The notes: generated by a model from the sequence alone, not told the origin. Positions 12,757 to 35,406 are shown, counted from the stretch's first letter. The stretch: 64,000 bases of DNA from Verrucomicrobiota bacterium (GCA_040386755.1 JAZKEY010000004.1:263137-327136); one strand, 5' to 3'. Numbers and translations: made by a program.

Positions 12757-12760
12757 GGAG

Positions 12761-12869: not shown

Positions 12870-12872
12870 CCC

Positions 12873-16066: not shown

Positions 16067-16145
16067 GGAAAATTGTTAGCTGATCGGATTTCCTACAGGG
16101 GATTTCCGATGGAGACGAACAAAATCGCCGATAAGAAAGAACCGC

Positions 16146-17138: not shown

Positions 17139-17159
17139 GCCAGCTGATAGAAAGCCGGC

Positions 17160-17417
17160 CTAGGCGGATTTCTCAATCTCGCGGGCGATCGATTCCACGT
17201 TTTCGAGGATGGCTTTCGCGGCGTCCGAGTTGCCGATCTTCAAGCCGAAATGTTTTTCCAAACCGACGACGAGCTGTAGAGCGTCCACCGAATCGAGGCC
17301 GAGCCCGCCGGCACCGAAGATCGGAACGGTGTCGCTGATTTCCGACGGGGATTGCTCCAGCATGAGCTCGTCCACCATCACTTCCTTGATCTTCTGTCGT
17401 AGTTCCGCGCCTTGCAT
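17160..17417 (-). CDS. Acyl carrier protein
   Basis: Acidic 85-aa protein, GLGLDSVDALQLV phosphopantetheine site; likely start ATG 17417 (ORF track 17444). Confidence 0.9.
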   Translation of the reverse strand: MQGAELRQKIKEVMVDELMLEQSPSEISDTVPIFGAGGLGLDSVDALQLVVGLEKHFGLKIGNSDAAKAILENVESIAREIEKSA

Positions 17418-17427
17418 GATAATTGAG

Positions 17428-18153
17428 TTAGAAAATTCCGCCATCGATCTTCAGCGCGGCTCCGGTGATGTAGGCCGCGTCGGCACTTGCTAGAAAAAAC
17501 ACCGCGGCGGCGACTTCCTCCGGTTTGCCGAAGCGGCGCATCGGGATGCCGCGTTTCGCGTTTTTCCTCGCCTCCTCGTCCATCCCGCCGAGCGCGTCGG
17601 TTTCGATGAACCCGGGGAGGATGGAATTCACGGTAATGCCGGATCTAGCGACTTCCTTCGCCAGTGTCTGGCCTAACGAAACCACACCGGCTTTGGCCGC
17701 GGCGTAATTGGTCTGGCCTAACGGCGGCAGCAGGGCGCTGAGCGAGGCGATGTTGATGATGCGTCCGGAGCGCTGGCGCATCATCGGCGTGACCACCGCG
17801 CGGCAACCGTGGAAGACCGCGTCGAGATTGGCGGCGATGACCGAGTGCCACGCGTCGTCCGGCATCGCGGCGAGTAGGCAATCGCGGTGCATGCCGGCGT
17901 TGTTGATGAGCACGTCGAGGCGGCCGTCGGTCTCGAGGATTTTCCCAACCGCCGCTTTCCACGCATCCGGGCTGGTGACCTCGAGATCGATCAGGAAACA
18001 GCGCCCGGGAAATTCACGGGCGAGGGATTCCGCCAGACCGCGGTTGGCCCGGACCCCGAGCCAGACCCGCGCTTCGGGATCATGATCGAGGAAATACCGG
18101 GCGATCCCCAGACCGAGCCCGCCATTTCCACCAGTGACCAAAACCGAACGCAC
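17428..18153 (-). CDS. fabG: 3-oxoacyl-ACP reductase-like SDR
   Basis: TGGNGGLG, NNAG, NYAAAK (YxxxK), PGFIET, IDGG. Confidence 0.8.
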   Translation of the reverse strand: MRSVLVTGGNGGLGLGIARYFLDHDPEARVWLGVRANRGLAESLAREFPGRCFLIDLEVTSPDAWKAAVGKILETDGRLDVLINNAGMHRDCLLAAMPDDAWHSVIAANLDAVFHGCRAVVTPMMRQRSGRIINIASLSALLPPLGQTNYAAAKAGVVSLGQTLAKEVARSGITVNSILPGFIETDALGGMDEEARKNAKRGIPMRRFGKPEEVAAAVFFLASADAAYITGAALKIDGGIF

Positions 18154-18349: not shown

Positions 18350-18591
18350 GAGAAATTAACAGATTTTTATATTTTTGGAATTGTCGCAAATCTACACATC
18401 GCGGGCGCATTGATACAAGTCGATCACAGGTTCGGAGCTAAAGTCTCAGGGATTCCGGTCGTGATCCGATTCGGAACACCAACGTTCAAAAACCCAATCA
18501 GGAACCGAGCTCGAACCCATCGAGTCCCTGTTCCCGTGAGTGCGAGCTCAGCGTGCCTGAATCAACCCAACCCAACCGCAACCCATCGATT

Positions 18592-21500
18592 ATGAAACCC
18601 CGTTTCCTGTCTCCGTCATCCACCACCACTCTGACCAAATCCTTCCACCCGGCAGCCGCGTTTTTCGCCGGCGTCCTCGCTTTCACCGCGACCGGCCCGC
18701 TTGAAGCCGCCTCCGACACTTGGGACAACGGTGCCGCGGACAACAACTGGCAGTCGGTCAACAACTGGGTTTTAAATGCGACATTTCCCGGACTGAACAC
18801 CAATGTTTACACCAGCACCGAGGACGCGACCTTCAGCGCCACCGGGGCCACCGGCACGGTCAATCTCGGTAACCAAATCAACCTCAGGAGCCTGATTTTC
18901 GGCGTCGCAGCAGGAAATGCGGCCTCGTTCACCCTCGGCGACGCGAATGACGTTCTGAACCTCACCACCGCTGGCGGCGTTACCGTCAATGCCGGTGTCA
19001 CCACCGCGCAGAACATCGGCTCTGCCGGAACCACCATCAATCTTTCCAACGCCTCCGCCGCCTCCGCGACCTTTACCAATAACAGCACGAACCTGCTCAC
19101 GGTCGCCGGCAACGTGGTCGCCAACGGTGCGGGCACGGGCGCGACTATCGCCCTATCACCCCTCCTGACCGTCACCGGCAGCGGAAACACCACCATTTCC
19201 GGCACGGTCTCCAAAGTCACCCACAACGCGCTTCTGAAAACCGGCGCTGGAACACTGACCCTGACCAACGGCAGTTCCTTCAGCGGCGCGGGTGCCATCG
19301 GCTACGTTCCCGCCACTGCCGCCGGCTTTCCGCTGGTGGTGCGCGAGGGCACTTTGTTGCTCAACGGAGGAACACACGCCTCCACCGGAGAGATTGTCAT
19401 TGGCGGCGTCGTGGCAAACGGCGGTGCCGGTCAGAACGCGAAAATCCAAGTCGACTCCGGCTCGATGACGGTGAGTTCGTGGCTTTCCGTCGGCCGCGGA
19501 AACGGTGTGGGTGGAGTCTCATCGGACCTCGCCTTGAACAATGGCGCGACCGTCACCTCCGCCAACTACAGCGGCGGCTTCAACGGGGGCAACGCTGCCA
19601 ATCTCGTCAAGGGTTCGATCACCCTGAATGGAACCTCCATGATGACCGTCACCGGAAATGATGGCAATTTCAACCATGGCGAGTCTACCGGTTCCAACCT
19701 CACCTTGACCCTCAACAATACGGCCACTTTGGTGCACAATGGAGGCGCTTCCGGAACAAAGATCGGCCTCTCCGGTCGTGGTATTCTGAACAACGCCAGC
19801 GTCGGCAGCACGGTCGACGTCCGCAACCTCATCATCGGGCAAGCTGCCAACGGAATCGGCGCGGTGTATAACAAAGGCACCCTGAAAACCGTCAATGACG
19901 GCTATTTCCTCGGAGACGGCAGCGGCAGCTCGAGTTATCTGCGAAACGACAATGCCCTGGCCACCGTGGCGAATGACAATGCGGGCAACCTGGCGGTCGG
20001 TATCGGACTGAACAGCAACGCGGTCACGGACGTCATCAGCGGCAGTCTGTCCGCGACAAGGATCCTTCTCGGCGCGTTCAACAGCAACGCATCCAACGGC
20101 CAGATCAACGTCACGGGCGGCACCCTTTCGAGCGGTGCGACGGGCACCTCCATCACCGACAGCGCGGCCCGTCAGAACAAGTGGGGAAACATCAACGTCA
20201 CCGGCGCCGGTGTCTTCGCGAATCCTACCACCATCAACCTTTCCTCGAGTCCCTTTGCCAACAACACCGGCATCCTCTCGATCGCGTCCGGAGGCACCGT
20301 GACCGCAGACACCATTATTACAAACGGAGCTCTGCCCAATGCCTATGTCAATTTCGACAGCGGCACTCTTCGCGCCAGTTCCGGCACCTCCGCCGCGCTG
20401 ATCGACACCAACATCGACCGGGTCACGGTTTATGGCGGCGGCGGCACCATCGACACCAATTCATTCAACAAGAACATTGACCGCATCATCGCCGCACCGA
20501 CCGGCAACGGCGTGACCAGCGTCGCCATCAGCGCCACCGGCACCGGCTACCTCGGACGCCCGCTGGTGAAAATCACCGGCGACGGAACCGGAGCCACCGC
20601 GATGGCTGATTTCAACCTGGCCACCGGCGAGGTCACCGGTATCACCGTCACCAGTCCCGGTGCGGGCTACACCACTGCGACAGTGACGGTCACCGGAGGC
20701 GGCGGCACCGCCATCACCGCCACGCCGACGCTTTCCGCTCCCACTGCCGGCGGCATCACCAAGGCCAGCGCTGGCACCCTGACTCTATCAGCCGCTAACA
20801 CCTACACCGGCCCCACCCTGGTCAACGGCGGCAAACTCAGCGTCACCGGCTCCCTCGCGAGCAGCAGCGCCGTCACGGTCGCCAACGGGGCGACCTTGGG
20901 CGGCACCGGCACGGTGAATGGCACCACCACCGTTTCCACCGGCGGCATCGTCGAAGGCGGCGTCAACGCGACCGGCAAGCTCAACCTCAGCGGACTCGCC
21001 TTCAACGGCGCTGCCAGCGTGAAGATCGGAACACTCTCCAACTATGCCGCGAGCACCGCCATCGGTGCCGGAGCATTAAGCACGGCGGGCGGTGCGGGTG
21101 CCGTGGTCATCAACATCGCCTCGCTCGGTGCCGCGACCGCTCCCAGCACCTACACCCTCATCGACTACACCGGCGGCTCCATCGGCGGAACTGGTTTTTC
21201 CGGTTTCTCCCTTGCTGCTCTGCCCAGCCGCGCCCTCGGCAGCCTTGTCGATACCGGCAGCCAGATCAACCTGTCCCTCACCAGCCTGGATTTCCTCAAA
21301 TGGACCGGAAACTCCGGGAGTTCATGGGACACGACCACCTCCAGTTGGAAACTCAACTCCAACAACAATGCCACCCTGTACATCAACTCGCCGGGTGATT
21401 CCGTGGTCTTCGACGACTCAGCCGTTCCCAATTTTACCGTGGATATCAGCACGGCGGACGTGAGTCCCACGAGCGTGACGTTCAACAACACCCTCACCAA

Positions 21501-24216
21501 CATTTACTCGCTGGAAGGGACCAATGCGATCACCGGAGTCACCAGCCTGACTAAGAACAACACCGGCATTCTTTCCATCAGCAATCCGAACACCTACTCC
21601 GGCGGGACCATTCTCAACGGCGGCACGCTCAACATCAACAACAACTCCGCCATCGGAACCGGCACGCTCACCATCAACGGCGGCGAACTGGACAGCACCT
21701 TCGGCGGCATCGTCCTGGGAACCAACAACCCCCAAGTCTGGAATGCGGACTTCAACTTCGTCGGAACCGGCGCGCTCAACCTCGGTACCGGAGCGGTCAC
21801 TCTCAGTGCGAACCGCATTCTGGACATCAACGGCGACGCCCCCCTGACCGTCGGCGGGGTGATCGGCGGACCCGGCTTCAGTCTCACCAAAGAAGGTCCT
21901 CAGGCCCTGATCCTCGGCGGGGCGAATACCTACACCGGCGGCACCACCGTCAACGAAGGAATCCTCCAGCTCAACCAGACAACCGGTGCTGCGAACATCG
22001 GGACCATCAACGTCAACGGTGGCTCGCTGGTGTTCAATCCGCCCGGCAACAATTTCGGTTATGCCCCTGCGATCAACCTGACGGTTGACACCACCTTCAG
22101 CAAGATCGGCAACCCGCAGATCAACTACACCGGCACCCTCACCGGCACCGGAAATGATCTGGAGGTCAACACTTCCGCAGGCCGCTTCTACATGAACGCC
22201 ACCGTCAGCGGCATCGACCAGATCAATATCACCGGAGGAGCGATGGGCTTCGACCTCAACGTTGGAAATCGTGCGGGAGGCGCTCCGGTCAACGTCTCCG
22301 ACGGTGCCTCGCTCTGGATGGCCAACGGAACCAACACCGTGGCCAACAACATCACCCTCAACGGTGGAACCGGTCAGGGCGGTACGGGAGCGCTTTTCCA
22401 GGAAGGCAACTCCGTGCAAACCATCTCCGGCGCGATCACGCTTGCCGCCGGGAACAGCCTGATCGGCGGCAATTCCAACAACGGAATCACCAGCAGCGTC
22501 ACCATCAGCGGCGCGGTCGGAGGCCCGGGGTCCCTGACCAAGGCCGGAACCCACAAGTTGGTCCTTTCCGGAGCCAACACCTATCCCGGATCGACCACGG
22601 TCAATGCCGGCACCCTTGCCGCCGGCATCGCTTCCGTTCCGAATGTCAGCGGTGCGTTCGGAAACAATTCCGCAGTGGCACTTGCAGACGTCGCCACCGC
22701 CATTCTCGACATCACCGGCTTCAACACCCAGATCGGCTCGATCACCGGCGGCGGGGCCGTCGGCGGAAACGTAACCCTCGGCGCGGCCACCCTCACCACC
22801 GGCGCTGATGACAGCAGCCCGGCCGCCTACGCCGGAGCGATCTCCGGCACGGGAGCCCTCGTCAAGATCGGCAACGGAACCCAAACCCTTTCAGGGGCCA
22901 GCAGCTACACCGGGGATACCACCATCCATGCGGGTTTCCTGGCCGCCAACCGTACCAATAACAACCTCAACCCGGTCGTCAGTGCCCTTGGAAATCCCCA
23001 GGTCGCGCGCAACATCACCGTCAACTCCGGCGGCACGCTGGGCTTCATCCTAGGTGACACCCTTGGAGGAGCGACCAGTGTCGTGGTTTCCACCCTCGTC
23101 ATCAATGCCGGCGGCCTGGTCACCAACAACGCCGACAACTTCACCAACCTGGGCCCGGTGCTCATGAATGGCGGAGTCCTGACCACGGCCGGCGGAGCGG
23201 TCGGCGGTTACCAATCCTACTACTTCAGCGGTGATGTGAGTGTCGGCGGCTCGACTGCCTCCGCCATCACCGTCACAGCCGGAGGAAATGCCTTCAACGG
23301 ATTCCACTTGGGCACCAACACCACCTTCACCGTCGCCGATGCCACAGGCAGCGCCGCCAGTGATCTCGATGTCACCGCCCCGCTCATCAACCGGAACCAA
23401 TCTCTTGGTGGCAATGGCGGCCTTACCAAAGCAGGTTCAGGAACCATGACCTTGGGCGAAATCAACACCTACACCGGCAACACCGTGGTTTCCGCCGGCA
23501 CGCTGGTCCTGGACACCGCCGGACAGTTGAAGTTCGTGGTCACCACCAATGGGCTGAACAACTCTCTCTCAGGTGCCGGAGCCGCCACACTCAAGGGTGG
23601 CTTCAACATCGACCACTCCGGAGCTGACATTGCCAATGGCAACAGTTGGACACTCGTGGATGTCACCAGCAAGACCTATGACAGCCTCTCCTTCAACATC
23701 CCCGGCTTCACCCAGGCCGCCGATGTCTGGACCAAGGTCGAGGGCAACAACACCTGGCGCTTCCATGAAACCGGCGTGAACGCCGGCAAGCTCACGTTGG
23801 AAGTGGCCACCCCGAGTGGATACGCCACCTGGGCCTCCACCAACGCGCCTACCGGAACCGCCGACGACGACTTCGACAACGACGGAGTGGCCAACGGCGT
23901 CGAATATGTGCTCGGCGGTTTGGCCACCACCAACGACAATGGCAAGCTGCCTGGTCTTGCCTTGAATGGTGGCGACCTCGTGTTCACCTTCATGCGCGAT
24001 CAGAATTCCGAAACACCGGATACCACCGCGAAAATCGAAGTCGGCACCAGCCTCTCCGCCTGGCCCGCCAGCTACGCGATCCCTAACAACCCTGTCGCCG
24101 CCAACCCCGGCGTCACGGTGGTGGATAACGGAAACGGTACGGACTCCATCACGCTGAGAATCCCGCAAGCGCCGGATACGAAGAAATTCGCCCGCTTGGT
24201 GGTGACGATCCAGTAA
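18592..24216 (+). CDS. Large secreted beta-helix protein with autotransporter-associated beta-strand repeats (adhesin-like)
   Basis: Signal peptide; repeated LTKxGxGTLTLxGxNTYTGxTxVNxGxL units; no beta-barrel; C-terminal DFDNDGVANGVEY...KKFARLVVTIQ; likely start ATG 18592. Confidence 0.9.
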   Translation: MKPRFLSPSSTTTLTKSFHPAAAFFAGVLAFTATGPLEAASDTWDNGAADNNWQSVNNWVLNATFPGLNTNVYTSTEDATFSATGATGTVNLGNQINLRSLIFGVAAGNAASFTLGDANDVLNLTTAGGVTVNAGVTTAQNIGSAGTTINLSNASAASATFTNNSTNLLTVAGNVVANGAGTGATIALSPLLTVTGSGNTTISGTVSKVTHNALLKTGAGTLTLTNGSSFSGAGAIGYVPATAAGFPLVVREGTLLLNGGTHASTGEIVIGGVVANGGAGQNAKIQVDSGSMTVSSWLSVGRGNGVGGVSSDLALNNGATVTSANYSGGFNGGNAANLVKGSITLNGTSMMTVTGNDGNFNHGESTGSNLTLTLNNTATLVHNGGASGTKIGLSGRGILNNASVGSTVDVRNLIIGQAANGIGAVYNKGTLKTVNDGYFLGDGSGSSSYLRNDNALATVANDNAGNLAVGIGLNSNAVTDVISGSLSATRILLGAFNSNASNGQINVTGGTLSSGATGTSITDSAARQNKWGNINVTGAGVFANPTTINLSSSPFANNTGILSIASGGTVTADTIITNGALPNAYVNFDSGTLRASSGTSAALIDTNIDRVTVYGGGGTIDTNSFNKNIDRIIAAPTGNGVTSVAISATGTGYLGRPLVKITGDGTGATAMADFNLATGEVTGITVTSPGAGYTTATVTVTGGGGTAITATPTLSAPTAGGITKASAGTLTLSAANTYTGPTLVNGGKLSVTGSLASSSAVTVANGATLGGTGTVNGTTTVSTGGIVEGGVNATGKLNLSGLAFNGAASVKIGTLSNYAASTAIGAGALSTAGGAGAVVINIASLGAATAPSTYTLIDYTGGSIGGTGFSGFSLAALPSRALGSLVDTGSQINLSLTSLDFLKWTGNSGSSWDTTTSSWKLNSNNNATLYINSPGDSVVFDDSAVPNFTVDISTADVSPTSVTFNNTLTNIYSLEGTNAITGVTSLTKNNTGILSISNPNTYSGGTILNGGTLNINNNSAIGTGTLTINGGELDSTFGGIVLGTNNPQVWNADFNFVGTGALNLGTGAVTLSANRILDINGDAPLTVGGVIGGPGFSLTKEGPQALILGGANTYTGGTTVNEGILQLNQTTGAANIGTINVNGGSLVFNPPGNNFGYAPAINLTVDTTFSKIGNPQINYTGTLTGTGNDLEVNTSAGRFYMNATVSGIDQINITGGAMGFDLNVGNRAGGAPVNVSDGASLWMANGTNTVANNITLNGGTGQGGTGALFQEGNSVQTISGAITLAAGNSLIGGNSNNGITSSVTISGAVGGPGSLTKAGTHKLVLSGANTYPGSTTVNAGTLAAGIASVPNVSGAFGNNSAVALADVATAILDITGFNTQIGSITGGGAVGGNVTLGAATLTTGADDSSPAAYAGAISGTGALVKIGNGTQTLSGASSYTGDTTIHAGFLAANRTNNNLNPVVSALGNPQVARNITVNSGGTLGFILGDTLGGATSVVVSTLVINAGGLVTNNADNFTNLGPVLMNGGVLTTAGGAVGGYQSYYFSGDVSVGGSTASAITVTAGGNAFNGFHLGTNTTFTVADATGSAASDLDVTAPLINRNQSLGGNGGLTKAGSGTMTLGEINTYTGNTVVSAGTLVLDTAGQLKFVVTTNGLNNSLSGAGAATLKGGFNIDHSGADIANGNSWTLVDVTSKTYDSLSFNIPGFTQAADVWTKVEGNNTWRFHETGVNAGKLTLEVATPSGYATWASTNAPTGTADDDFDNDGVANGVEYVLGGLATTNDNGKLPGLALNGGDLVFTFMRDQNSETPDTTAKIEVGTSLSAWPASYAIPNNPVAANPGVTVVDNGNGTDSITLRIPQAPDTKKFARLVVTIQ

Positions 24217-24227
24217 ACCTCCCACCC

Positions 24228-24270
24228 AACGCCCCGGCTGGACCCGTTCCGGCCGGGGCGTTTTGTTTTT
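24228..24270 (+). terminator. Intrinsic terminator
   Basis: AACGCCCCGGCTGGA (24228-42)/TCCGGCCGGGGCGTT (24248-62) followed by TTGTTTTT. Confidence 0.85.
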
Positions 24271-24770
24271 CAGAAAGGAAGCCCGGCTTTTCGATAGATG
24301 AAATGCATCAGCCACGCCGGACCGATGAGGAGGAACTGGACGTCCTTCAAAAACGACGGCTTTTTGCCTTCCACATGGTGCCCGAAAAATTGGAACACCC
24401 ACGAAACCGCGAAAATCCCCGCGCAGATTCCCCACAACGGAATCGATACGTGAGAGGAAATGAAACCCACCAGCACCAGACACCCGGCGCTAAAAAACAT
24501 CAACCCGAGTGCCAATGACGGCGACAGGATCACATAATAAATCCCGACAACGATCACCGCTGGCAGCGCCCAATTCGCCAGATTTCCCAACCACGGTTCC
24601 AACTCAGCCAACGGCCCCGGCGGGATGCAGGCAATCAGGCCGAGAATGCTGAAAAAAATCGCGGGCACGCAGATCCAATGGATGATCTCATTGGTCGCAT
24701 TCTGATGGCTGTCGCCGTATTCGGCCAGCAGCCGGTCGATTTTCCGCAGCGATGTTCGTGAAGTTGGCAC
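24270..24770 (-). CDS. DUF962 / Mpo1-like membrane protein (2-hydroxy fatty acid dioxygenase family)
   Basis: EYGDSHQNATNEIIHWICVP and WVFQFFGHHVEGKKPSF motifs; probable GTG start 24770 (ORF track 24929). Confidence 0.8.
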   Translation of the reverse strand: MPTSRTSLRKIDRLLAEYGDSHQNATNEIIHWICVPAIFFSILGLIACIPPGPLAELEPWLGNLANWALPAVIVVGIYYVILSPSLALGLMFFSAGCLVLVGFISSHVSIPLWGICAGIFAVSWVFQFFGHHVEGKKPSFLKDVQFLLIGPAWLMHFIYRKAGLPF

Positions 24771-24822
24771 CGGACAATGAACTAGCCGTTTCAAATCCAT
24801 CATGCAATGCTTCCCGCCATTC

Positions 24823-25905
24823 ATGAAAACTCCCCGGCTTGTATTCGTCGTCCTGATTTCAGCAATGGGTATTTCCATGGCCGATGAAGACCCGCCGATC
24901 AACCGCGCACAATTCATCGGCACGCACAATTCCTATCACATCGCACCCTCGCCGAAGGTTCGCCACTTGATCGAAACAGTCGCAAAGGGCGAGGGCGACG
25001 CCATCAACTGCACCCAGCGCCCCCTAACTGAGCAACTGGAGAAACTCTCCATCCGCCATTTCGAGCTCGATCTCTACGCCGATCCCAAAGGCGGGCTGTT
25101 CTCGAATCCGCTCGCAGCCACCCTCGTCGGAGAAATTAATCCGCATCCTGATCCGCTATGGAAGCAGCCGGGGCTAAAAATCCTGCATAGTCCTGATTTC
25201 GACTTCCGCACCACGGTTCCCACCTTTCGTAAAGCCCTTCAGGAACTCGCCGCCTGGTCCAAGGCACATCCGAAACATGAGCCGCTGATGATTCTGCTAG
25301 AGCTGAAACAGGATTCGTTTTCCCCGAAGACCCGACCGCTGCCGTTTGACGAAGCGCAGCTCAAGACCGTCGAAACGGAAATTCTCGCGGAACTCGCGAA
25401 GGAACAAATTCTAACACCGGATCAGGTGCGCGGCGATTTCCCCACCCTGCACGATGCCGTCACGAAACGCGGTTGGCCGAAACTTTCCGAAGCCGCCGGA
25501 AAATTCATCTTCTGCCTCGATAACGAAGGCGTGGTCCGCGACCGCTATCTCGCGCTTTCACCGGCAAAGAACCTAACTGGCCGATTGCTCTTCACCAGTG
25601 TCCCGCGTGATCACCCGGCGGCGGCGTGGATGAAGCGGAATGATCCGGTCGGCGGCTTCGATGAAATCCAGTCCCTCGTGAAAACCGGTTTCATGGTCCG
25701 CACCCGCGCCGATGGCAACCTCAAGGAAGTCCGCGCCAAGGATTACACCCGTTTCAAGAAAGCCGTGGCCAGCGGTGCGCAATGGATCAGCACCGATGCG
25801 CCCGAGGAAATTCCGGAGTTCCCCGGCTATCGCGTCGGCTGGGAAAACGGTCGAGTGTGGCAGCTAAGGAGCGTGGGACTGTGGCCCACGAAGCCGATGG
25901 AGTGA
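24823..25905 (+). CDS. Exported phosphoinositide-specific phospholipase C-like protein (PI-PLC X domain)
   Basis: Signal peptide; QFIGTHNSYH, IRHFELDL, GAQWISTD; likely start 24823. Confidence 0.8.
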   Translation: MKTPRLVFVVLISAMGISMADEDPPINRAQFIGTHNSYHIAPSPKVRHLIETVAKGEGDAINCTQRPLTEQLEKLSIRHFELDLYADPKGGLFSNPLAATLVGEINPHPDPLWKQPGLKILHSPDFDFRTTVPTFRKALQELAAWSKAHPKHEPLMILLELKQDSFSPKTRPLPFDEAQLKTVETEILAELAKEQILTPDQVRGDFPTLHDAVTKRGWPKLSEAAGKFIFCLDNEGVVRDRYLALSPAKNLTGRLLFTSVPRDHPAAAWMKRNDPVGGFDEIQSLVKTGFMVRTRADGNLKEVRAKDYTRFKKAVASGAQWISTDAPEEIPEFPGYRVGWENGRVWQLRSVGLWPTKPME

Positions 25906-25975
25906 GAAAGCGCTGCGCGAAGCTCATTTCTTTCGCTTCCCATCGACCCGGTGGGCCGAAGTCCCACCCTTACCC

Positions 25976-27667
25976 CTAACGAAACCTCGCATCAAACGAA
26001 CGCAAAGCGATTTCCCCACCACTGAAATCCGGCGGAAGCCCGTCACTCAAATTCCTTCGCTCGGCTACCGGCTTCAACATCTCCAACGCCATGCCTTTGA
26101 ACCTCGTCTGCACCGCACCCAGCGTGTGCTTTCCAAACACCGTGTGCCCTCCCTCATAAGCCTGCTCCTCGTATTCCTCCAATGTCGTGACATAGCCGCA
26201 GTAGCCGTTGGCGTAACTCGCGACCACCACCTCCTCAATCCCACGCGTTGATAGAATTTCCAACAGCGACTTCTCAATACGCCGCCCCGCGATGGTCGTC
26301 ACCTCCCCCGGAACCGCAGCGAACGCGCAATCGCCCACAATCATCAGTTGCAGCGGAAGGACCTGCGGAATCCACGGTTGGTCGCCCAAACTGCCGTTCG
26401 CGTAAAACCGTTTGAAGGCGGCAAGCCCGCCATCCGCCCATCCGGGCAGTGGAAGTTTCCGGATGTCGCGAAACCCGAGAATTCGCCGCTGCCCCGCTTC
26501 GAACAAAATGTCCTTGGGATCCTGGATCCGGTATTTAAGCCGGACCGCCTCGGCAACCGGTTTCCAACGCATGGAAAACAACTCCCATGCTTTCAGTGCA
26601 CGGCTCAGCAGAACGGAGACATCCGCAAGAATCTTCGGCATCCCCGGCCCCTCGCGGGTGCCTCTGGCGAACGCCACGCCATGACAGGCCGGGCCGGTTC
26701 TGGCATCGGTTTCTCCACGGGAAAACTCGGCATCGATGCTCACCTTCGTGAAGTCCACCCATGCCAGCAGAGAGTCGATTTCCACGGGCAGGACTTCGCT
26801 GATAGCAGCACGTGCCGACAACTCTCTCGCCTGCTCGAATTGAAGCCTGCCGTTGATTCGCGAGCTTTCGAAATCGTCTTCATGGCTCCCTCTCGTCCAG
26901 CCCTTCTTCCTGTCGAAAATGAAGTTCGGTGTCACATCGCCCGCGCTGCGTTGGGCGAAGACGGCGACACCCTCATGCTCTTCCATCAACGCCGCCGCAT
27001 GGCCCTTGTTGTCGGCACAGATGCGGTGTTGGTCATTGCTGATGCTGGTGCAATGGACGCCGAAAAAATTCCATGTCGCGATCGGCGTGCCATCGACTCC
27101 ATCAAAGCGGAACAGCAGCATCTGCCGGTCGATGGCCGCGTTCGCATCCTTCTCCGTGACCTTCACCACTTCCGGATTCCTGTTATAAGCCGCGAGGGAG
27201 CGATTGAAGGCCACATCCCGGTCCAGTGGAAATTCCCCGCTGGAGAACTTGATCACCGCAGGCCGAGCGTTTGCGTCCGCTTGAATGATCACCTCCACAA
27301 TGCCATCGACGATGATTTGAAAGACCTCCGGCCCGAATCCGGGGATGGACATGTTATAGAGCGCGTAATGCGAATAGCCGCCGGGACCGCTGTGGGTGTG
27401 CTGGGCGGTCAGCATTACGGCATCCTCAGTGAAACCTAGACCGCCGATCTTTTCCATCACCGCGGTCCTGATCGCCAAAGTGATGAAACAGATTTCCGCA
27501 TTCACCCACGCCACTTTCCCCCGGCCGGTCTTGATGACGACGGCCCGTGCGAACAAAGGGGTTTCTACTTCCTCCACGAACTGGTGGAACAATCCGTAAC
27601 CCATCATCCCAACACCCCGCTTGAATGCGGTGATGCCGGCCTTGGCCGCGCCGATTTGATAGATCAA
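25976..27667 (-). CDS. Neutral/alkaline ceramidase
   Basis: AQHTHSGPGGY, FGVHCTS, AGDVTPN, AVPGEVTTIAGRR, YANGYCGYVTTLEEYEEQAYEGG; TTG start, no signal peptide. Confidence 0.85.
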   Translation of the reverse strand: MIYQIGAAKAGITAFKRGVGMMGYGLFHQFVEEVETPLFARAVVIKTGRGKVAWVNAEICFITLAIRTAVMEKIGGLGFTEDAVMLTAQHTHSGPGGYSHYALYNMSIPGFGPEVFQIIVDGIVEVIIQADANARPAVIKFSSGEFPLDRDVAFNRSLAAYNRNPEVVKVTEKDANAAIDRQMLLFRFDGVDGTPIATWNFFGVHCTSISNDQHRICADNKGHAAALMEEHEGVAVFAQRSAGDVTPNFIFDRKKGWTRGSHEDDFESSRINGRLQFEQARELSARAAISEVLPVEIDSLLAWVDFTKVSIDAEFSRGETDARTGPACHGVAFARGTREGPGMPKILADVSVLLSRALKAWELFSMRWKPVAEAVRLKYRIQDPKDILFEAGQRRILGFRDIRKLPLPGWADGGLAAFKRFYANGSLGDQPWIPQVLPLQLMIVGDCAFAAVPGEVTTIAGRRIEKSLLEILSTRGIEEVVVASYANGYCGYVTTLEEYEEQAYEGGHTVFGKHTLGAVQTRFKGMALEMLKPVAERRNLSDGLPPDFSGGEIALRSFDARFR

Positions 27668-27682: not shown

Positions 27683-28258
27683 CTAACTTTGCGGCTCATT
27701 CCCCGGTTTCCACTTGATGTTGCAGCCGCTGCTGGGATATGGACGGGCGAGCGGTTCCTCGCCACCGAGCATCCGTCGCACCGCCTCGCGCAGATCGCCG
27801 CCGTGGGGTTCGAGCCCGCTGCGTGGCCGGGAGTCGTCGAACTGGCCGGTGTAAAAAAGCAGGCCGTTTTCGTCGAAGAGGAAGAAGTCCGGCGTGCACA
27901 CCGCGCCGTGGGCCTTGGCGACTTCCTGGGATTCATCCAAAAGATACGGAAAATCCCAGCGATGCTCATTGGCGAAGTTTTTCATCATATCCGGGCCATC
28001 CTGGGGGAACCTGCCGAGATCGTTAGAGTTAATCACCACTGTGCTGACGCCATGGTCTGAAATTTCGCGGGCGAACTCCCCCAGCGCATCCGCCAGATGA
28101 ACTACGAAAGGACAGTGGTTGCAGGCGAATACGACCAGCAGGCCTTTTGGTCCGTTCATGCCTTCACGCGGCATCATGTTTCCGTCGGCATCGGGCAAAG
28201 AGAAGTCGGGGGCCGGGTCGCCCGGACTCATTTGAAAGGATGACAGGGTTTCAGACAT
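27683..28258 (-). CDS. Thioredoxin-family (AhpC/TSA-like) protein
   Basis: GDPAPDFSL, FACNHCPFV, CTPDFFLF, GCNIKWK; likely start 28258. Confidence 0.85.
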   Translation of the reverse strand: MSETLSSFQMSPGDPAPDFSLPDADGNMMPREGMNGPKGLLVVFACNHCPFVVHLADALGEFAREISDHGVSTVVINSNDLGRFPQDGPDMMKNFANEHRWDFPYLLDESQEVAKAHGAVCTPDFFLFDENGLLFYTGQFDDSRPRSGLEPHGGDLREAVRRMLGGEEPLARPYPSSGCNIKWKPGNEPQS

Positions 28259-29585: not shown

Positions 29586-30578
29586 TCAAACGGGACGGTG
29601 CGACAGGCTGATGGACGGTAACATTTCTTGAAGAGGGTCGTCTTTAGAAAATACCAACTCCGCGGACTCACCATCCGCAGTGATCGTGATTCCGGACGTC
29701 TCTTTGAAATGACCGATCTCGCGACAAGTGATTTTCGTCGCCGTGAAATGGCTCATCGTGCTTTCCAGATCATCCTCGGAAATGGCGAGCAGGAATCCGT
29801 AGCTGGGAAACGAGACGAGCCATTTCTCGATCTCCACATCCATCGGACATGGCAGATCCTCCAGATCCAAAACCGCGCCGACGGCTGAGCAGTGGCAAAG
29901 CATCGCTAGCGTTCCGATGATGCCGCCGTTGCTGATGTCCTTGCCCGCACGGCAAAGTCCTTTTTCCGCCAGCGAAGGCAGCATTTCCAAATCCGACCTC
30001 AACCGCTCCGGCGGGGTGATCGTGCTGGCATTCCAAAACGGTTTGTCGCCCTGATAGCCGCCGTGCATGTCGATGGCGATGACAAGCAGATCGCCCGGTT
30101 TCGCATCGAAGCTCGTGATCAACCGGTCGCCAGCATGACCGAGCACCGCCGCGCCGAGCATCGCTTTTCCTGAAACCGTCCGGGTGGTGTGGCCGCCGAC
30201 AATCGGGACGCCGTAAGCCAAGGCGGCGGCTTGCATCCCCTGCCAGATCTCAGCGGAAATTTGTTCGGTGGGCGTCCACAGGATGTCCGTGACGGCGACC
30301 GGACGTCCGCCCATCGCGGCGACATCGGATAAATTGACCATCACCGCAGAGTATCCTGCGAACCAGGGATCGTCTTCCACGAAGGATCCCAACATGCCTT
30401 CGGCGGCGAACAGCAGATGTCCACTGCCCGACGGGTTGACGATCGCCGCGCAGTCATCACCGAGCCGGACCTTGCCTGAAACTTCCAATGCATGACCGTA
30501 TGCCTGTTGAATATTGGCTTTCTCAGTCACCGCAGGGTGACTTGAGAGGTATTCCGCCAGCGAGGCAAGTTCGGTCAT
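29586..30578 (-). CDS. AIR synthase-related protein, Sll0787/NitF family
   Basis: LGDDCAAI, NLSDVAAMGGRP, GGHT, KDISNGG; position in the Nit1C cluster. Confidence 0.85.
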   Translation of the reverse strand: MTELASLAEYLSSHPAVTEKANIQQAYGHALEVSGKVRLGDDCAAIVNPSGSGHLLFAAEGMLGSFVEDDPWFAGYSAVMVNLSDVAAMGGRPVAVTDILWTPTEQISAEIWQGMQAAALAYGVPIVGGHTTRTVSGKAMLGAAVLGHAGDRLITSFDAKPGDLLVIAIDMHGGYQGDKPFWNASTITPPERLRSDLEMLPSLAEKGLCRAGKDISNGGIIGTLAMLCHCSAVGAVLDLEDLPCPMDVEIEKWLVSFPSYGFLLAISEDDLESTMSHFTATKITCREIGHFKETSGITITADGESAELVFSKDDPLQEMLPSISLSHRPV

Positions 30579-30644
30579 CGGACCTTCACTGATAGATCAA
30601 GTCATGCCAATTTTGGGAAAAAAGTGAATCACCGTGTAGTATTT

Positions 30645-31211
30645 TCAGGCGACACGAGATGAGGCGTGGTAATAGCTGAGATCAGCACGCATCCTGACGT
30701 GGGGGATCCCATGAAGACATATCTCTTCGAGCGGTTCCCAATGAAGGCGTTGGAAAAAACGGGCGTTCTGATGTTGCACCGTCGCGAGGAATTCATGACA
30801 GCCCAGTGCGTTCGCCGTGGACACAGCTTTATAGATCAATCCGGCTCCGAGAGCGCCGAGTCCGTGATAGCAAGGTTGTAGATTTCTCACCGCAACGCCC
30901 GGACTGAAGTGGCGGATCCGCCGGAAATCCATTGCCACTCCCAGGCGGGAACCATACCATAGTCCCGGATTCCGCTCGTCGATCCGCACCACGCCCGCCA
31001 CGGCATCCTCCATCCCGGCGATGAGTGTTTTGCATACGATGGGAATCATCGACTCGTCGAAGAGATCGCGATCATCTCCGGCGAAGATCCCCTGCTCCTC
31101 GCAGAAAATATCGCGGCGGACCGAGAAGAATCCATCGAGGTCCTCGGGTGATTTCGCGATCTTGAATACGAAATCATGCGGACTGTAGGTGGGGAAGCGT
31201 TCGAGGATCAT
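30645..31211 (-). CDS. GNAT acetyltransferase, MSMEG_0567/Sll0786 (NitE) family
   Basis: RRDIFCEEQGIF, WYGSRLGV, ATVQHQNARFFQRLHW; ATGA overlap with the upstream gene gives start 31211. Confidence 0.85.
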   Translation of the reverse strand: MILERFPTYSPHDFVFKIAKSPEDLDGFFSVRRDIFCEEQGIFAGDDRDLFDESMIPIVCKTLIAGMEDAVAGVVRIDERNPGLWYGSRLGVAMDFRRIRHFSPGVAVRNLQPCYHGLGALGAGLIYKAVSTANALGCHEFLATVQHQNARFFQRLHWEPLEEICLHGIPHVRMRADLSYYHASSRVA

Positions 31212-32470
31212 GATTCGCAATGGGCGGTTTGGGGAATGCTCGCTTTGATTTTCGCAGCAATGAAATCCGCATCCTCAGCGATGCCGGAAAACCGCGCGGA
31301 GCCCCAGGTGTGTTGCCAGGGCAGTCCGAGAAAGTAGAGTCCCGGCAGCTCGGTGACACCGCGATCCGTTTCCGGGAATCCGCGCATGTTGAGGACCGGC
31401 AGTTTGATGAAACTGAAATTCGGCAGGAAGCCGATGCACCAGACGATGCTGGTGATGTTCTGTTCCGCGAAGTTCAGTTCGATCGGTTCGCTTTCGGGAC
31501 TCCACACCGGGGTATAGTGAGGTTCCTCGGGAGCATCGATGCCGTTGGCGGAGATATAGTCATCAATCCGCTGGCAGATTCCGTTGTAGGACCGGTCCGC
31601 GCTGTCGAGCTTTTGGGCAAGATCCTGGCGGATGGTGAATTTTTCAAAATCGATGTTCTCGACGAAACCATAGAGTTTCACCCCTTCGAGAGCGAATTTG
31701 CGGAGGTCGATTTCATGACCGCCATCGCGACCTGTCAGATAGTGGTTGGTGCCGGAGACCGCCTTCGCCTGATCCGGATGCTCGGCGAAGGTGGTTTTAT
31801 AATACCCCATTTCCTCCAGCCAAGTGACCGCGTCCTTGCCACGATAACGGCGCGGCGATCGCGGGGCATTGCCGAGGCAGAGGTGGACCTTGCGACCTTC
31901 GAGATGGAGGTCTTCCATGATCTGCACTCCGGATTGGCCCGAACCAACGATCAGTGTCTCGCCTTCGGGAATCTGTGAGGGCCGCTTGTAATCGACCGAA
32001 TGGATCTGTTGGATCGAGTCCGGAATCCGGTCCGCTCCGGCGGGCACGAACGGCGTGTGGAATCCGCCGATGGCGACGATCACGTCATCGCAAAACCAAT
32101 TGCCCTGATTAGTGGTGACGTGGAAATAGCCTTCGCGCTTGGTGACGGAAGTGACGGTGACACCTTCCAAGATCGGAGGCTTGAATTTTTTCGCGTAGCG
32201 CTCGATGTAGTCTACGATTTCATCCTTCACCATGAAGCCTTCGGGATCGTCGCCATCGTAGTGATGGCCGGGCAGGCGGCATTGGTGGTTCGGCGTGACG
32301 AGGCAAAAGGTATCCCAGCGCTCCGACCGCCACGAGTGGCCGATGCGGTGTTTCTCAAGGATGACATGGTCATCCACACCGCGCTGCCGGAGGCAATAAC
32401 TCGCCGAAAGTCCGGCTTGTCCGCCGCCGATGATGACCACGGAAATGTATTGGGGATCGGTGAATGGCAT
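31208..32470 (-). CDS. Flavin-dependent oxidoreductase, MSMEG_0569 (NitH) family
   Basis: IGGGQAGL, ERWDTFCLVTPN, VGSGQSGVQI, GLPWQHTWGSARF. Confidence 0.88.
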   Translation of the reverse strand: MPFTDPQYISVVIIGGGQAGLSASYCLRQRGVDDHVILEKHRIGHSWRSERWDTFCLVTPNHQCRLPGHHYDGDDPEGFMVKDEIVDYIERYAKKFKPPILEGVTVTSVTKREGYFHVTTNQGNWFCDDVIVAIGGFHTPFVPAGADRIPDSIQQIHSVDYKRPSQIPEGETLIVGSGQSGVQIMEDLHLEGRKVHLCLGNAPRSPRRYRGKDAVTWLEEMGYYKTTFAEHPDQAKAVSGTNHYLTGRDGGHEIDLRKFALEGVKLYGFVENIDFEKFTIRQDLAQKLDSADRSYNGICQRIDDYISANGIDAPEEPHYTPVWSPESEPIELNFAEQNITSIVWCIGFLPNFSFIKLPVLNMRGFPETDRGVTELPGLYFLGLPWQHTWGSARFSGIAEDADFIAAKIKASIPQTAHCES

Positions 32471-32482
32471 GAGGACGGGCTT

Positions 32483-32761
32483 CTAACTGACGTGGGAAAT
32501 GATGACCGGAGCGTCCGGCGGCAAGGCCCCGGCCCATCGCTCGATGTCCGCAAGCGAGGCGGAGGCGGAGGTGCAGGAGAATCCGAATCGTTCGCGGACA
32601 CGGTCGGACGCCTCGGTGAGGGCGATCCGGGACAAGCGGATGAATTCCTCCGCCGGGAGTTGCTGGCCGGTCTTGAAATATTTTTTCACGACAGTGGACG
32701 GCGAGTAACACGGCTGGAAACTACCGTCCGGCAATTCGGCGGTGAAGGTGACTTCAGGCAT
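32483..32761 (-). CDS. MSMEG_0570 (NitG) family small protein, copy 1
   Basis: MPEVTF...CYSPSTVVKKYF...ASDRVRERFGFSCTSA. Confidence 0.85.
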   Translation of the reverse strand: MPEVTFTAELPDGSFQPCYSPSTVVKKYFKTGQQLPAEEFIRLSRIALTEASDRVRERFGFSCTSASASLADIERWAGALPPDAPVIISHVS

Positions 32762-33902
32762 TGGAACAGGAATTTTTGTTAGAACTCTCGAAAGAGGAAA
32801 GGGAGCTGCAGGCGCCGCATTTCGCGCATCCGGCTTTCACGGTATCAGAAGTCATGCCAGCTTCGGTGAGCATTGCCCCGAGCGGCGACAGGACGGCTTT
32901 CATGAATTCCGGAGTCGGCGGCGGGTGGCCGGCCAGCGGAGTGCCGGTGACGGGGACAAACGGCACGACGAAAGGATAAACGCCGAGTGAAACGAGCTGG
33001 CGGCAGCCTTCGAGCAATCCGTCCACGCTATCGCCAAGCCCGGCGAGGAGGTAGGTGCTGACTTGGCCACGGCCGAAAACTTTCACGGCAGCGGCGAAGG
33101 CTTCCATGTAATAGCTCATCGGCACCTCGGCCTTGCCCGGCATGATCCGGTGGCGGACGGTTTCGTCCCAAGCTTCCAAATGCATGCCGAGGGAATCGAC
33201 GCCGTTGGCGCGGAGTTTCACAAACCACTGGAAATCATCCGGCGGCTCGCATTGGGCTTGGATGGGTAAATTCGTGGCCTGCTTGATCGCGTAAGCGGCG
33301 GCGGCGAGCACGGCGGCCCCGCGATCCGGAGTGGGCGGGGTGCCGGTGGTCATGACGACGTTGTCGATGCCGTCGAGTCGCTTGGCGGCGGCGGCGACTT
33401 CGGCGAGCTGTGCAGGGGATTTTTCGCGGATGGTGCGGCCTGCTTTCAGCGACTCGCCGATGGCGCAGAACTGGCAGCGCGTTTCGGAATTTCCGTAGCG
33501 GATGCAGGTTTGTAAAAGCGTGGTGGCGAGCACGCGCTGCGAGTGGAGCTGGGCGATTTTCCAATAAGGGACGCCGTCCTGCGTGCTGAGTCCGTAGAAT
33601 TTCGGCTCGGGAGGAAACTGGACGGTCGCGATTTGCTCTGAGTCACGAAACAGATCGGCCTGCCCGGACGGGCTGATAGATCCGATTGAGAACGGTGATG
33701 ACGCGGCTCCCCGCGTGTGGATCGGCACCATGATCGTGGTGCCTAACACCGTGACCGCCTTGTGATCGGTCGGCCCCGCGCCGCCGCTGCGCGAGGGCGC
33801 GGTGGAAGGAGCGTCGCCGATGCGGAGCCCGGCGGATTGGAGCTCAGAGAGCAGCCATTGCTTCTTCGAGAAGAGGGCGGATGGGAAGTCGAGTGTCTGC
33901 AT
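32754..33902 (-). CDS. Radical SAM protein, MSMEG_0568 (NitD) family
   Basis: [14 protein letters not shown] cluster motif; C-terminal GCAKCGACS; overlaps the nitrilase 3' end by 59 nt so the start is uncertain. Confidence 0.88.
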
Positions 33903-34830
33903 CTTGGGAGATTTCGGTGAGGGCGGGCCGCGGGGTTTTATCCACGCGGAGGTCGAAAAGGTCGGGCCGGCTGTAGTGGCCGACGGAATCCATCATGCGT
34001 TTCCGCTTGGTGATGAGGTCAAAGTCGAGATCGGCAATCGCCATGCCTTCGCCCTCGGTGACTGGTTCGCAAAGGTGCGAGCCATCCGGCGCGATGATTG
34101 CCGAGAAGCAACCGCCTCGCAGGGCTTTCTGCTTTGCCGGATCCGGCGTGATTTCCGTGATCTGCTCATCGGTGAGCCAGCCGGTGGAATTCACGACGAA
34201 ACATCCGGCCTCCAGCGCGTGATGGCGGATCGTGACTTCGATCTGATCGGCGAAAATCTGCCCGACCATCGAACCGGGAAATTGCGCGCAATGGATTTCC
34301 TCACGATCCGCCATCAGCGTGTAGCGGGCTAACGGATTGTAGTGTTCCCAACAGGCGAGCGCTCCAATCCGGCCGACGGCGGAGTCCACGGCACGCAGAC
34401 CGGAACCGTCGCCCTGGCCCCAGATCATGCGTTCGTGAAACGTCGGCGTGATTTTCCGCCGCTTCAATAACAGCTCGCCGTCCGAGTCGTAGACAAGCTG
34501 CGTGTTATAAAGCGATCCGCCGTCCAGCTCGTTCACGCCGACCACGAGCACCATGCGGTGGCTCGCGGCGGCGCGGGAGAGGCGCTGGGCCAGCGGGCCG
34601 GGAATTTCCACGGCCTCGCGATACAGTTTCTGATGAGCTTTTCCAGTGGCGAACGGCGGCTCGACAAAGGAAAAGTAGGGATAATACGGGACGAAGGTTT
34701 CCGGGAAAACGGCCAACTTCACGCCCGCGTCCGCGGCTTCGGCGATGGCCCGGACCATGCGGTCGATGGTGCCTTCCGCGCCGTTGAGGTCGGGGGCGAT
34801 CTGGATGGCCGCTGCTCGGATGGTTTTCAT
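33844..34830 (-). CDS. Nitrilase, Nit6803/NitC family
   Basis: E-K-C triad: [23 protein letters not shown]. Confidence 0.92.
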
Positions 34831-34837
34831 AATTGGA

Positions 34838-34857
34838 GCGCGGAATTCATTCCGCGC
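34838..34857. repeat. Perfect palindrome between nitB and nitC
   Basis: GCGCGGAAT-TC-ATTCCGCGC, 7 nt upstream of the nitrilase ATG. Confidence 0.7.
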
Positions 34858-34872
34858 GTTTGCTTTGATGAG

Positions 34873-35355
34873 TTAGACCGTCCACGAATCCATGATCACT
34901 GCGTTGCATTTCTTGTGCATCAGGATGCAGTCGAGCACGTCGAGCGGATTGATCGGGATGATGCCCGGCATGAAGGCTTTTTCGGTTTGGCCGTAGAGGG
35001 CCTGCGTTGAAAACCGGCAGCCATAGACTTTTCCGCCCTCTTCCATGAATTTCGCGAGCCGCTGGTTCACAAAGAGATGGCCGGGGAATGCCTCATCGCC
35101 GAGGGTTGGGAAACCGCGTTGGAAGCCCATGGTCACACCCGGCCCGTAGAGCAGGATTGAGGTTTCATAGCCCTTCCGCAGCAGGCGAGTCGCGGAGAGC
35201 GTGTTCACGATGGCGATCGATCCCTCGAAGGCCATGGTGTGGAAGGTGACGAGCGCTTTTTCGCCCGGCTCGGCCTTGTAGTCTTCGAAAACCTTCTCTT
35301 CGTAATCGACGAGCACGTCTCCGTTCTTATGCATTTCACGTTCAACTTTTGGCAT
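34873..35355 (-). CDS. MSMEG_0572/Sll0783 (NitB) family protein
   Basis: [40 protein letters not shown]. Confidence 0.88.
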
Positions 35356-35406
35356 GGTGGTGGTTGGTTAGGGAGTGGGGGTCCGACATTGGACAAGGGC
35401 GAATAA

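Follow-up and report, generated by a model that had tools for sequence, protein, structure and literature searches.

A ceramidase-like and an Mpo1-like gene as a candidate functional pair beside a PI-PLC-family gene in a Luteolibacter lineage

Introduction

Sphingolipids, among them glycosyl inositol phosphorylceramide (GIPC), inositol phosphorylceramide (IPC), sphingomyelin and bacterial ceramides, are a major store of carbon, nitrogen and phosphorus in soils and waters, and almost nothing is known of their use by environmental bacteria beyond Pseudomonas aeruginosa. A 64,000-nucleotide stretch of DNA from a Verrucomicrobiota bacterium (GCA_040386755.1, JAZKEY010000004.1:263137-327136; this whole stretch is called the window, and positions are counted from its first letter) carries three adjacent genes at 24270-27667. 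They encode an Mpo1-like (DUF962) protein, a member of the PF16670 family of phosphatidylinositol-specific phospholipases C (PI-PLC; the gene is called PLC below) and a homologue of neutral ceramidases (PF04734). An initial annotation, made from the sequence alone, had proposed that the three together form a sphingolipid-foraging locus. Do these genes act as one unit, does a smaller set of them act together, or are they neighbours by chance?

We favour a smaller unit than the trio. Comparison of related loci suggests that the ceramidase-like and Mpo1-like genes are a functional pair in the Luteolibacter lineage, a reading to which we give a probability of roughly 0.45. The ceramidase-like enzyme would be a cytoplasmic, probably membrane-associated, zinc amidase that hydrolyses externally obtained ceramide-type lipids to release long-chain base and fatty acid. 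Plant, fungal and many bacterial sphingolipids have 2-hydroxylated acyl chains; from such a chain the Mpo1-like protein, as a membrane dioxygenase, would take off C1 as CO2, and the fatty acid, shorter by one carbon, would pass into beta-oxidation. This second step is proposed because it is the only activity known for the DUF962 family, that of yeast Mpo1. If the link between the two genes is real, it would assign a function to a DUF962 protein from bacteria for the first time, define a class of cytoplasmic single-domain neutral ceramidases and explain the salvage of 2-hydroxy acyl chains, which block beta-oxidation.

Results and Discussion

The ceramidase-like and Mpo1-like genes

The window has a G+C content of about 60%, and its proteins find their best relatives in Luteolibacter (Verrucomicrobiota), the nearest named species being L. 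yonseiensis at about 70% amino-acid identity. Open reading frames (ORFs) at 24270-27667 bear out the gene content and arrangement described in the initial annotation. The Mpo1-like gene, on the minus strand, is divergent from the PLC gene on the plus strand, which in turn converges on the ceramidase-like gene on the minus strand. The three family assignments were likewise upheld by profile searches, with the E values given below for each gene.

The ceramidase-like gene (25976-27667, minus strand) encodes a leaderless, single-domain neutral-ceramidase homologue of 563 residues that matches the neutral/alkaline ceramidase N-terminal domain (PF04734, E = 4.9e-102). Among solved structures it aligns with P. 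aeruginosa ceramidase (PDB 2ZWS, E = 2.8e-74) and with 4WGK (E = 3e-57), and a fold search with its model returned neutral ceramidases only (TMq 0.72-0.75). Residues H97, H99, R160, H204, E411, Y448 and Y460 of 2ZWS, which we take to be the zinc ligands and catalytic residues, align with H90, H92, R156, H205, E455, Y492 and Y504 of the window protein. All seven are conserved, and they are invariant in 12 members of the subfamily. By these comparisons the protein looks like an active ceramidase.

Two further features set the protein's architecture. First, the alignment to 2ZWS stops at residue 488 of 646 and the window protein ends only 31 residues later, which indicates that the C-terminal (immunoglobulin-like) domain is absent; no Pfam match to the ceramidase C-terminal domain was found in the protein. 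Second, only 15 nt separate the first start codon from a stop codon upstream of it, which leaves no room for a leader, and the homologues all start at the same M-x-x-I-G motif. The nearest relatives outside the clade are from Flavobacteriales (Bacteroidota), at 60% identity.

The Mpo1-like gene encodes a membrane protein of about 160-184 residues (PF06127, E = 2e-17; 63 bits against a cut-off of 24). It lies at about 24270-24770 on the minus strand, within an ORF of 24270-24929. Candidate start codons are a GTG at 24770 and ATGs at 24800, 24803 and 24824; the relatives measure 156-161 residues, which places the real gene at about 24270-24770. Where the relatives have their ATG start, the window has a CTG (24749-24747), and the region between the Mpo1-like and PLC genes is about 21 nt shorter than in the relatives. 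The lost ATG and the shortened intergenic region possibly reflect early decay or changed regulation. Depending on the start chosen, the two divergent genes are separated by at most 52 nt or overlap, and a motif comparison of this intergenic region across relatives revealed no conserved palindrome. Four histidines (H40, H49, H149 and H174, P0241 numbering) are invariant in 120 Mpo1-like homologues.

Outside the clade, the nearest relatives of the Mpo1-like protein are found in Cyclobacteriaceae (Bacteroidota), at 60-67% identity. In both cases the nearest relatives beyond the clade come from Bacteroidota, which is consistent with horizontal acquisition of the ceramidase-like and Mpo1-like genes. 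Base composition was considered as a sign of recent transfer and set aside as not decisive: G+C at third codon positions is 0.67-0.71 in the trio against about 0.70-0.85 in the neighbours, but the adjacent AhpC-like gene and several others are equally low.

Retention and loss within the Luteolibacter clade

The trio is kept in five of the seven clade loci, namely the window, L. yonseiensis (locus L001) and three metagenome or metagenome-assembled genome (MAG) contigs (L002, L166 and L167), at 70-77% amino-acid identity. All five share one order: an AhpC-like gene, then the ceramidase-like gene in the same direction, then the PLC gene facing it, then the Mpo1-like gene in the direction of the first two. 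This retention speaks for a three-step route in which IPC or GIPC of plant, fungal, protist or Bacteroidota origin is cut by a secreted PI-PLC, the ceramide is taken up, and the ceramidase and Mpo1-type alpha-oxidation follow as parts of one module.

The two remaining clade members depart from that picture in opposite ways. Locus L003 comes from a Luteolibacter MAG and has the PLC most similar to that of the window (77%); it keeps the gene for a PATR (autotransporter-associated beta-strand repeat) protein, an intact PLC gene and the AhpC-like and ThiF genes. It has no ceramidase gene and no trace of one, and its Mpo1-like gene survives as a remnant (L003:9865-9949): a deletion of about 405 bp has left 17 codons at its start and 14 at its end, and a short repeat marks the junction. 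Conversely, L165/L168 (one JGI contig) keeps the AhpC-like gene followed by the ceramidase-like gene, and also the Mpo1-like gene, and has neither a PLC gene nor a PLC remnant; the place of the PLC gene is taken by a 10-kb block encoding a hybrid histidine kinase, a LamG protein and an RCC1-like protein.

Thus, the ceramidase-like and Mpo1-like genes are kept or lost together and the PLC gene behaves independently of them. This is not the joint retention or loss of all three genes expected from the initial annotation: the PLC alone remains in L003, and the other two alone remain in L165/L168. A PLC gene that stays intact after the loss of its supposed partners, and that is replaced where both partners persist, argues against the three-step route, which we consider unlikely. 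The retention of the PLC gene in L003 suggests instead that it is an older resident gene of the Planctomycetota-Verrucomicrobiota-Chlamydiota (PVC) group with a role of its own, rather than an obligatory part of the pair.

The same loci bear on the possibility that the trio is a chance association of unrelated genes at an indel hotspot. The PLC would then scavenge phosphate or inositol from glycerophosphoinositides or glycosylphosphatidylinositol (GPI) anchors, the ceramidase-like enzyme would cut some other N-acyl compound, and the Mpo1-like protein would act on 2-hydroxy fatty acids made by the cell itself. The genes do not share an orientation and the region is plastic, as seen from the 10-kb block at the place of the PLC gene in L165/L168 and from a 5.7-kb PATR insertion beside the Mpo1-like gene in a subclade (the window, L002 and L003 have it; L001, L166 and L167 do not). 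However, chance does not readily explain why the ceramidase-like and Mpo1-like genes were lost jointly in L003 while the PLC gene and all other flanking genes were kept, nor why these two, each with its closest relatives in Bacteroidota, should have come to lie next to one and the same resident gene. We would not expect chance association to be the explanation.

A further alternative is that the Mpo1-like protein and the ceramidase-like amidase remodel the cell's own N-acyl or hydroxy-acyl lipids, made by an adjacent cluster of ketoreductase (KR), acyl carrier protein (ACP) and LPG_synthase_TM genes. In L001 and L167 this cluster follows the Mpo1-like gene by 38 nt on the same strand; the KR, ACP and LPG_synthase_TM genes are also present in the window (16146-18153, minus strand, beyond the PATR gene), and a cytoplasmic ceramidase would suit such a role. 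Yet L003 keeps the whole KR-ACP-LPG_synthase_TM set despite having lost both the Mpo1-like and the ceramidase-like gene, and in the window the PATR gene stands between the cluster and the Mpo1-like gene. No serine-palmitoyltransferase-like gene was seen in the window, on which ground a locus for endogenous sphingolipid synthesis was also set aside. Relatives of the ceramidase are, moreover, linked to exported hydrolases and TonB receptors, a catabolic and outward-facing context. Endogenous remodelling is therefore very improbable in our estimate.

The PI-PLC-family gene

The PLC gene (24823-25905, plus strand; alternative start at 24802) encodes a predicted exported phosphodiesterase of 360 residues belonging to the Ca2+-dependent PI-PLC family (PF16670, E = 4e-101, spanning model positions 3-325 of 329). 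Its start codon is conserved among relatives. Read by eye, the N terminus is a Sec-type signal peptide, MKTPRLVFVVLISAMGISMA (24823-24882, plus strand), followed by DED, with cleavage expected after SMA; the same region has low pLDDT in the structural model. The initial annotation had placed an exported PLC beside a cytoplasmic-type ceramidase, and this topology holds, given the by-eye signal peptide of the one and the lack of room for a leader in the other.

The AF2 model of the PLC (pLDDT 88.7) found its best structural matches in 5FYO/5FYR and 3H4W, with a probability of 1.0 and target-normalised TM scores of 0.57-0.66. These structures represent Pseudomonas sp. PI-PLC (5FYO/5FYP/5FYR) and Streptomyces antibioticus PLC1 (3H4W/3H4X), which are secreted-type enzymes of the same Pfam family as the window PLC. 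Identity to the matched Ca-dependent PI-PLC structures is only 13-16%, and the sequence alignment to 3H4W covers residues 128-233 only (about 100 residues), too short for a comparison of catalytic residues. Motifs H35-N36, E81-x-D83, E160 and R293/R295/D297 are invariant in 14 homologues.

Relatives of the PLC occur in Planctomycetota and Verrucomicrobiota, where the neighbouring genes encode metallophosphoesterases, sulfatases and proteins of the PVC families DUF1559, DUF1501 and DUF1549/1553, a setting that does not favour the three-step route. In three Planctomycetaceae MAGs, two of them from marine surveys, a calcineurin-like metallophosphoesterase gene lies directly upstream of the PF16670 PLC gene (L016:7553-8575, L018:422-1444 and L029:8463-9893). 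Such pairs suggest phosphate scavenging from inositol lipids, as the chance-neighbour alternative would have it. The role of the window PLC would most plausibly be head-group release from inositol lipids, and it could in that way supply ceramide from inositol-phosphoceramides.

The initial annotation had also taken it as established that bacterial PI-PLCs can cleave IPC. In our literature search, no PF16670 enzyme was reported to cleave IPC or GIPC, and the characterised fungal GIPC-PLC, Botrytis BcGIPC-PLC1, belongs to the sphingomyelinase family (PMC11496612), a point that again counts against PI-PLC as the first step. BcGIPC-PLC1, yeast Isc1 and bacterial sphingomyelinase C perform the head-group step that had been given to PI-PLC. 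They have the endonuclease/exonuclease/phosphatase (EEP) fold, in contrast to the TIM barrel of the window PLC, and the Luteolibacter locus has no gene of this kind. It is nevertheless the sphingomyelinase family whose members actually lie beside this ceramidase subfamily in other bacteria, as described below.

The trio outside the clade

Conservation of the trio was examined in two sets of loci, both searched by tblastn and then with hidden Markov models (HMMs). The first comprised 79 genome loci around PF16670 homologues from Planctomycetota and Verrucomicrobiota (1.05 Mb of flanks) and the second 80 metagenome loci around homologues of the ceramidase subfamily (0.70 Mb of flanks). At the PF16670 loci outside the clade, an Mpo1-like gene was found in none of the 79 and a ceramidase-like gene in one, where the match is weak and under the Pfam cut-off (L015). 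At the ceramidase loci outside the clade, a PF16670 gene was found once in 80 (L095, 6 kb away).

In these searches, which took in 160 fetched loci, the literal trio was confined to a narrow Luteolibacter clade; it is not a conserved cluster. The initial annotation had itself proposed a synteny search and named lack of conservation as grounds for abandoning the three-gene unit; as far as PI-PLC is concerned, lack of conservation is what was found, and it bears against the three-step route and accords with chance association. Gene adjacency alone is weak evidence, since the arrangement is not kept outside the clade. What is informative is how genes were lost within the clade, as described above, together with what lies beside ceramidase-subfamily genes in other phyla.

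Gene neighbourhoods of the ceramidase subfamily elsewhere

The ORFs flanking the ceramidase at the 80 loci were clustered. In 24 of the loci, a pyridoxal-phosphate (PLP) enzyme of about 400 residues is encoded directly after the ceramidase on the same strand; in family and structure searches it matched only D-threonine aldolases and 3-hydroxy-D-aspartate aldolase (fold-type III). A TonB-dependent receptor gene stands directly upstream of the ceramidase in seven of the 80. At L151, L155, L160 and L162, and at L169, a close relative of L160, the ceramidase adjoins a gene for a sphingomyelinase-C-like EEP protein with a signal peptide, and in two further loci a sphingomyelinase-like gene lies about 4-6 kb away. 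The best PDB matches of the EEP protein are Staphylococcus aureus beta-hemolysin and the sphingomyelinases C of Bacillus cereus and Listeria, and it matches the NCBIfam sphingomyelin phosphodiesterase model TIGR03395, under the cut-off of that model. Ceramidases of the sphingomyelinase-like loci share just 32-49% identity between lineages.

In low-GC metagenome bacteria these elements come together as an operon of leaderless ceramidase-like, exported sphingomyelinase-C-like EEP and D-threonine-aldolase-like PLP genes (L151:4924-8548, L155:6042-9669 and L162:10007-13607). L160:417-3009 and L169:120-2676 have the ceramidase-like and sphingomyelinase-C-like genes, the third (PLP) gene being missing. 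Although it lies outside the window, this recurrent operon is the most valuable lead to come from the analysis. It may represent a phosphorylation-independent route of sphingoid-base degradation, for which the candidate genes are few. No paper on ceramidase/sphingomyelinase/aldolase operons or on a D-threonine-aldolase/sphingosine system was found in a literature search that did not extend to subscription journals, which makes this a weak absence.

Two loci from marine Flavobacteriales MAGs resemble the window more closely. At L106:7475-18130 and L114:1-9276, a TonB-dependent receptor gene is followed by ceramidase-like, aldolase-like, CotH-like and uncharacterised genes. On the opposite strand to the ceramidase, about 4 kb away, sphingomyelinase-like, DUF1571/LysM and Mpo1-like genes are consecutive and co-directional. 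From their gene content, these loci are the predicted functional analogue of the window trio in another phylum, with a non-homologous phosphodiesterase. The recurrence of the subfamily beside sphingomyelinase-like genes, and once near an Mpo1-like gene, in a phylum other than that of the window is a further point against chance association.

On a Chitinophagales-like contig (L095:2819-13494), whose ceramidase is identical to a protein assigned to a Chitinophagales-type MAG, a TonB receptor gene is followed by the ceramidase-like gene and by one for a secreted, T9SS-tailed purple-acid-phosphatase-like protein, with a PF16670 homologue 6 kb upstream. Among the loci fetched, this is the only co-location of PF16670 and ceramidase genes outside Luteolibacter and, as a second and independent one, it lends some weight to the three-step route.

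Throughout these loci the phosphoesterase is exported and the ceramidase leaderless, the same topology as in the window. Its recurrence points to a subfamily that acts on externally delivered sphingolipid-type substrates, so that sphingolipid catabolism is a reasonable theme for the subfamily as judged from its gene neighbourhoods. The variety of phosphoesterases also suggests that the head-group-removing partner is interchangeable. For the three-step route, the match in topology to the sphingomyelinase-like/ceramidase operons and to P. aeruginosa cerN-plcH makes a non-orthologous head-group enzyme in the phosphodiesterase slot plausible.

These observations can be drawn together in a wider scheme, which is tentative and, taken whole, rather doubtful. 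Bacteroidota, and by transfer some Verrucomicrobiota, would have an undescribed modular pathway of five steps for exogenous sphingolipids. An exported head-group phosphodiesterase, which may be sphingomyelinase-C-like, a PI-PLC or purple-acid-phosphatase-like, would act first, and uptake, sometimes through a dedicated TonB-dependent receptor, may follow. The leaderless single-domain neutral ceramidase may be the third step. As the fourth, the D-threonine-aldolase-like PLP enzyme may convert the free sphingoid base directly to fatty aldehyde and ethanolamine, bypassing the kinase and lyase that eukaryotes use. Lastly, an Mpo1-type dioxygenase may make 2-hydroxy acyl chains usable. For Luteolibacter, the window may hold a reduced form of this pathway in which PI-PLC would remove the head group.

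Evidence against the proposed ceramidase-Mpo1 pair

Several results weigh against pairing the ceramidase-like gene with the Mpo1-like gene. The co-variation on which the pairing relies comes from seven loci and a single loss lineage, and absence from a locus is not absence from a genome. Outside the clade, an Mpo1-like gene lies within 10 kb of the ceramidase in only two of the 80 ceramidase loci (L106 and L114), and these two are one lineage. In Cyclobacteriaceae, the genes adjoining the closest Mpo1 relatives are for DAO, Na+/H+ exchanger and patatin proteins; neither a ceramidase nor a PLC gene was found near the Mpo1 loci of the closest named ones, Mongoliitalea and Echinicola. The gene order of L001 and L167, with the KR-ACP-LPG_synthase_TM genes directly after the Mpo1-like gene, hints at a tie to endogenous lipid synthesis.

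Other objections come from the window itself. Its three genes are three separate transcription units. Within the 64 kb there is neither an aldolase-like partner nor an outer-membrane importer; annotation of the whole window showed no serine-palmitoyltransferase-like gene, no TonB-dependent receptor and no obvious long-chain-base enzyme. The ceramidase-like protein reaches 238 bits with the NCBIfam neutral ceramidase model NF041649, short of its cut-off of 1200, and this low score together with the missing C-terminal domain means that the substrate could be another N-acyl lipid. Finally, a sequencing-run search found the window DNA solely in watershed and freshwater metagenome (DNA) runs, and no RNA runs contain the sequence.

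Set against the route for sphingolipid use in the initial annotation, the results leave its sphingolipid theme and the link between ceramidase and Mpo1 standing, by virtue of the loss pattern and of the neighbours elsewhere; it is the membership of PI-PLC that they fail to support.

Comparison with known systems

The closest described system is that of P. aeruginosa. There, cerN lies upstream of plcH and cerN-plcH-plcR is a conditional operon induced by sphingosine and SphR (bioRxiv 10.1101/2023.11.06.565848, PMC5150637); CerN and PlcH act in sequence on exogenous sphingolipid, and PlcH hydrolyses sphingomyelin and phosphatidylcholine (PMC5150637). As in the window, a neutral-ceramidase-family gene adjoins the gene for a secreted lipid phosphodiesterase. 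PlcH is presumably of the phosphoesterase/acid-phosphatase type and not a member of PF16670.

The differences are several. CerN is secreted (PMC5150637), and the solved enzyme has 646 residues with a C-terminal domain, whereas the window protein has neither a leader nor that domain. The cerN and plcH genes point the same way, and read-through yields a single transcript; the window ceramidase and PLC genes are convergent and cannot share a transcript. The P. aeruginosa locus is SphR-induced, whereas no SphR-like regulator is annotated near the window locus. An Mpo1 partner, present at the window locus, has not been described for P. aeruginosa. In short, the action of a secreted phosphodiesterase and a neutral ceramidase on exogenous sphingolipids is already known, and what differs here is a leaderless single-domain ceramidase, a phosphodiesterase of another family, the convergent arrangement and the presence of Mpo1.

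For the Mpo1-like protein the reference is yeast. Yeast Mpo1 (YGL010w) is an Fe2+-dependent 2-hydroxy fatty acid dioxygenase of phytosphingosine degradation (Kondo 2014, Seki 2019 and Mori 2020, cited in PMC10398889) and the sole characterised DUF962 protein, which alpha-oxidises 2-hydroxy fatty acids arising from sphingolipid breakdown. Both it and the window protein, which is predicted to be membrane-embedded, belong to PF06127. The yeast substrate comes mainly from the long-chain base via 2-hydroxypalmitate, whereas the substrate proposed for the window protein would come from the N-acyl chain. Three histidines are essential in yeast Mpo1, where conserved histidines have been proposed to bind Fe2+.

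Our literature search returned no functional study of a bacterial DUF962 protein and nothing relevant on bacterial ceramidase/Mpo1 systems or Verrucomicrobia ceramidases. The initial annotation knew of no described bacterial pathway with the combination of all three families. A phosphodiesterase beside a neutral ceramidase is already known from the P. aeruginosa cerN-plcH-plcR locus.

Neighbouring genes and other features of the window

Upstream of the ceramidase-like gene, an AhpC/TSA-redoxin-like protein of 191 residues (PF08534 and PF00578) is encoded at 27683-28258 on the minus strand, in synteny with L001, L002, L003 and L165-L167. Its end is separated from the ceramidase-like gene by a gap of 16 nt on the same strand, and by this spacing the two genes are probably co-transcribed. 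The AhpC-like gene is still present in relatives without the ceramidase. A ThiF/MoeB-rhodanese gene comes after it.

On the other side of the locus, the PATR protein of 1887 residues is encoded at 18553-24216 on the plus strand, between the Mpo1-like gene and the KR-ACP-LPG_synthase_TM genes. A strong terminator-like hairpin of 15 pairs followed by a T run (24228-24262, plus strand) lies 3' of the PATR gene, just beyond the Mpo1 stop codon. Apart from this terminator, a promoter and terminator scan gave nothing above shuffled sequence. The KR-ACP-LPG_synthase_TM genes are the end of a longer single-strand run (9305-18153, minus strand) that has four big ORFs with no Pfam match (573, 520, 668 and 492 residues), then the LPG_synthase_TM gene, a dedicated ACP and a FabG-like ketoreductase. 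The run may be an uncharacterised lipid-biosynthesis cluster.

Within a few kb of the locus, L001 (19-6820) and L167 (81-6802) have a JetABCD (Wadjet) defence operon, which was not seen at the equivalent place in the window. A cluster of the MSMEG_0567/sll0787 type occupies 29586-35367 of the window on the minus strand, with genes for AIR-synthase-like, GNAT, MSMEG_0569 flavin oxidoreductase, radical SAM and CN hydrolase proteins and a small ORF. The name of the NCBIfam GNAT model points to nitrogen starvation, and the cluster looks unrelated to the trio. The DAGK_cat/YegS-like family takes in diacylglycerol, ceramide and sphingosine kinases; a lipid kinase of this family (430 residues, 57429-58721, minus strand) is encoded 30 kb from the locus. 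Elsewhere the window carries gyrA/gyrB and a secretin gene.

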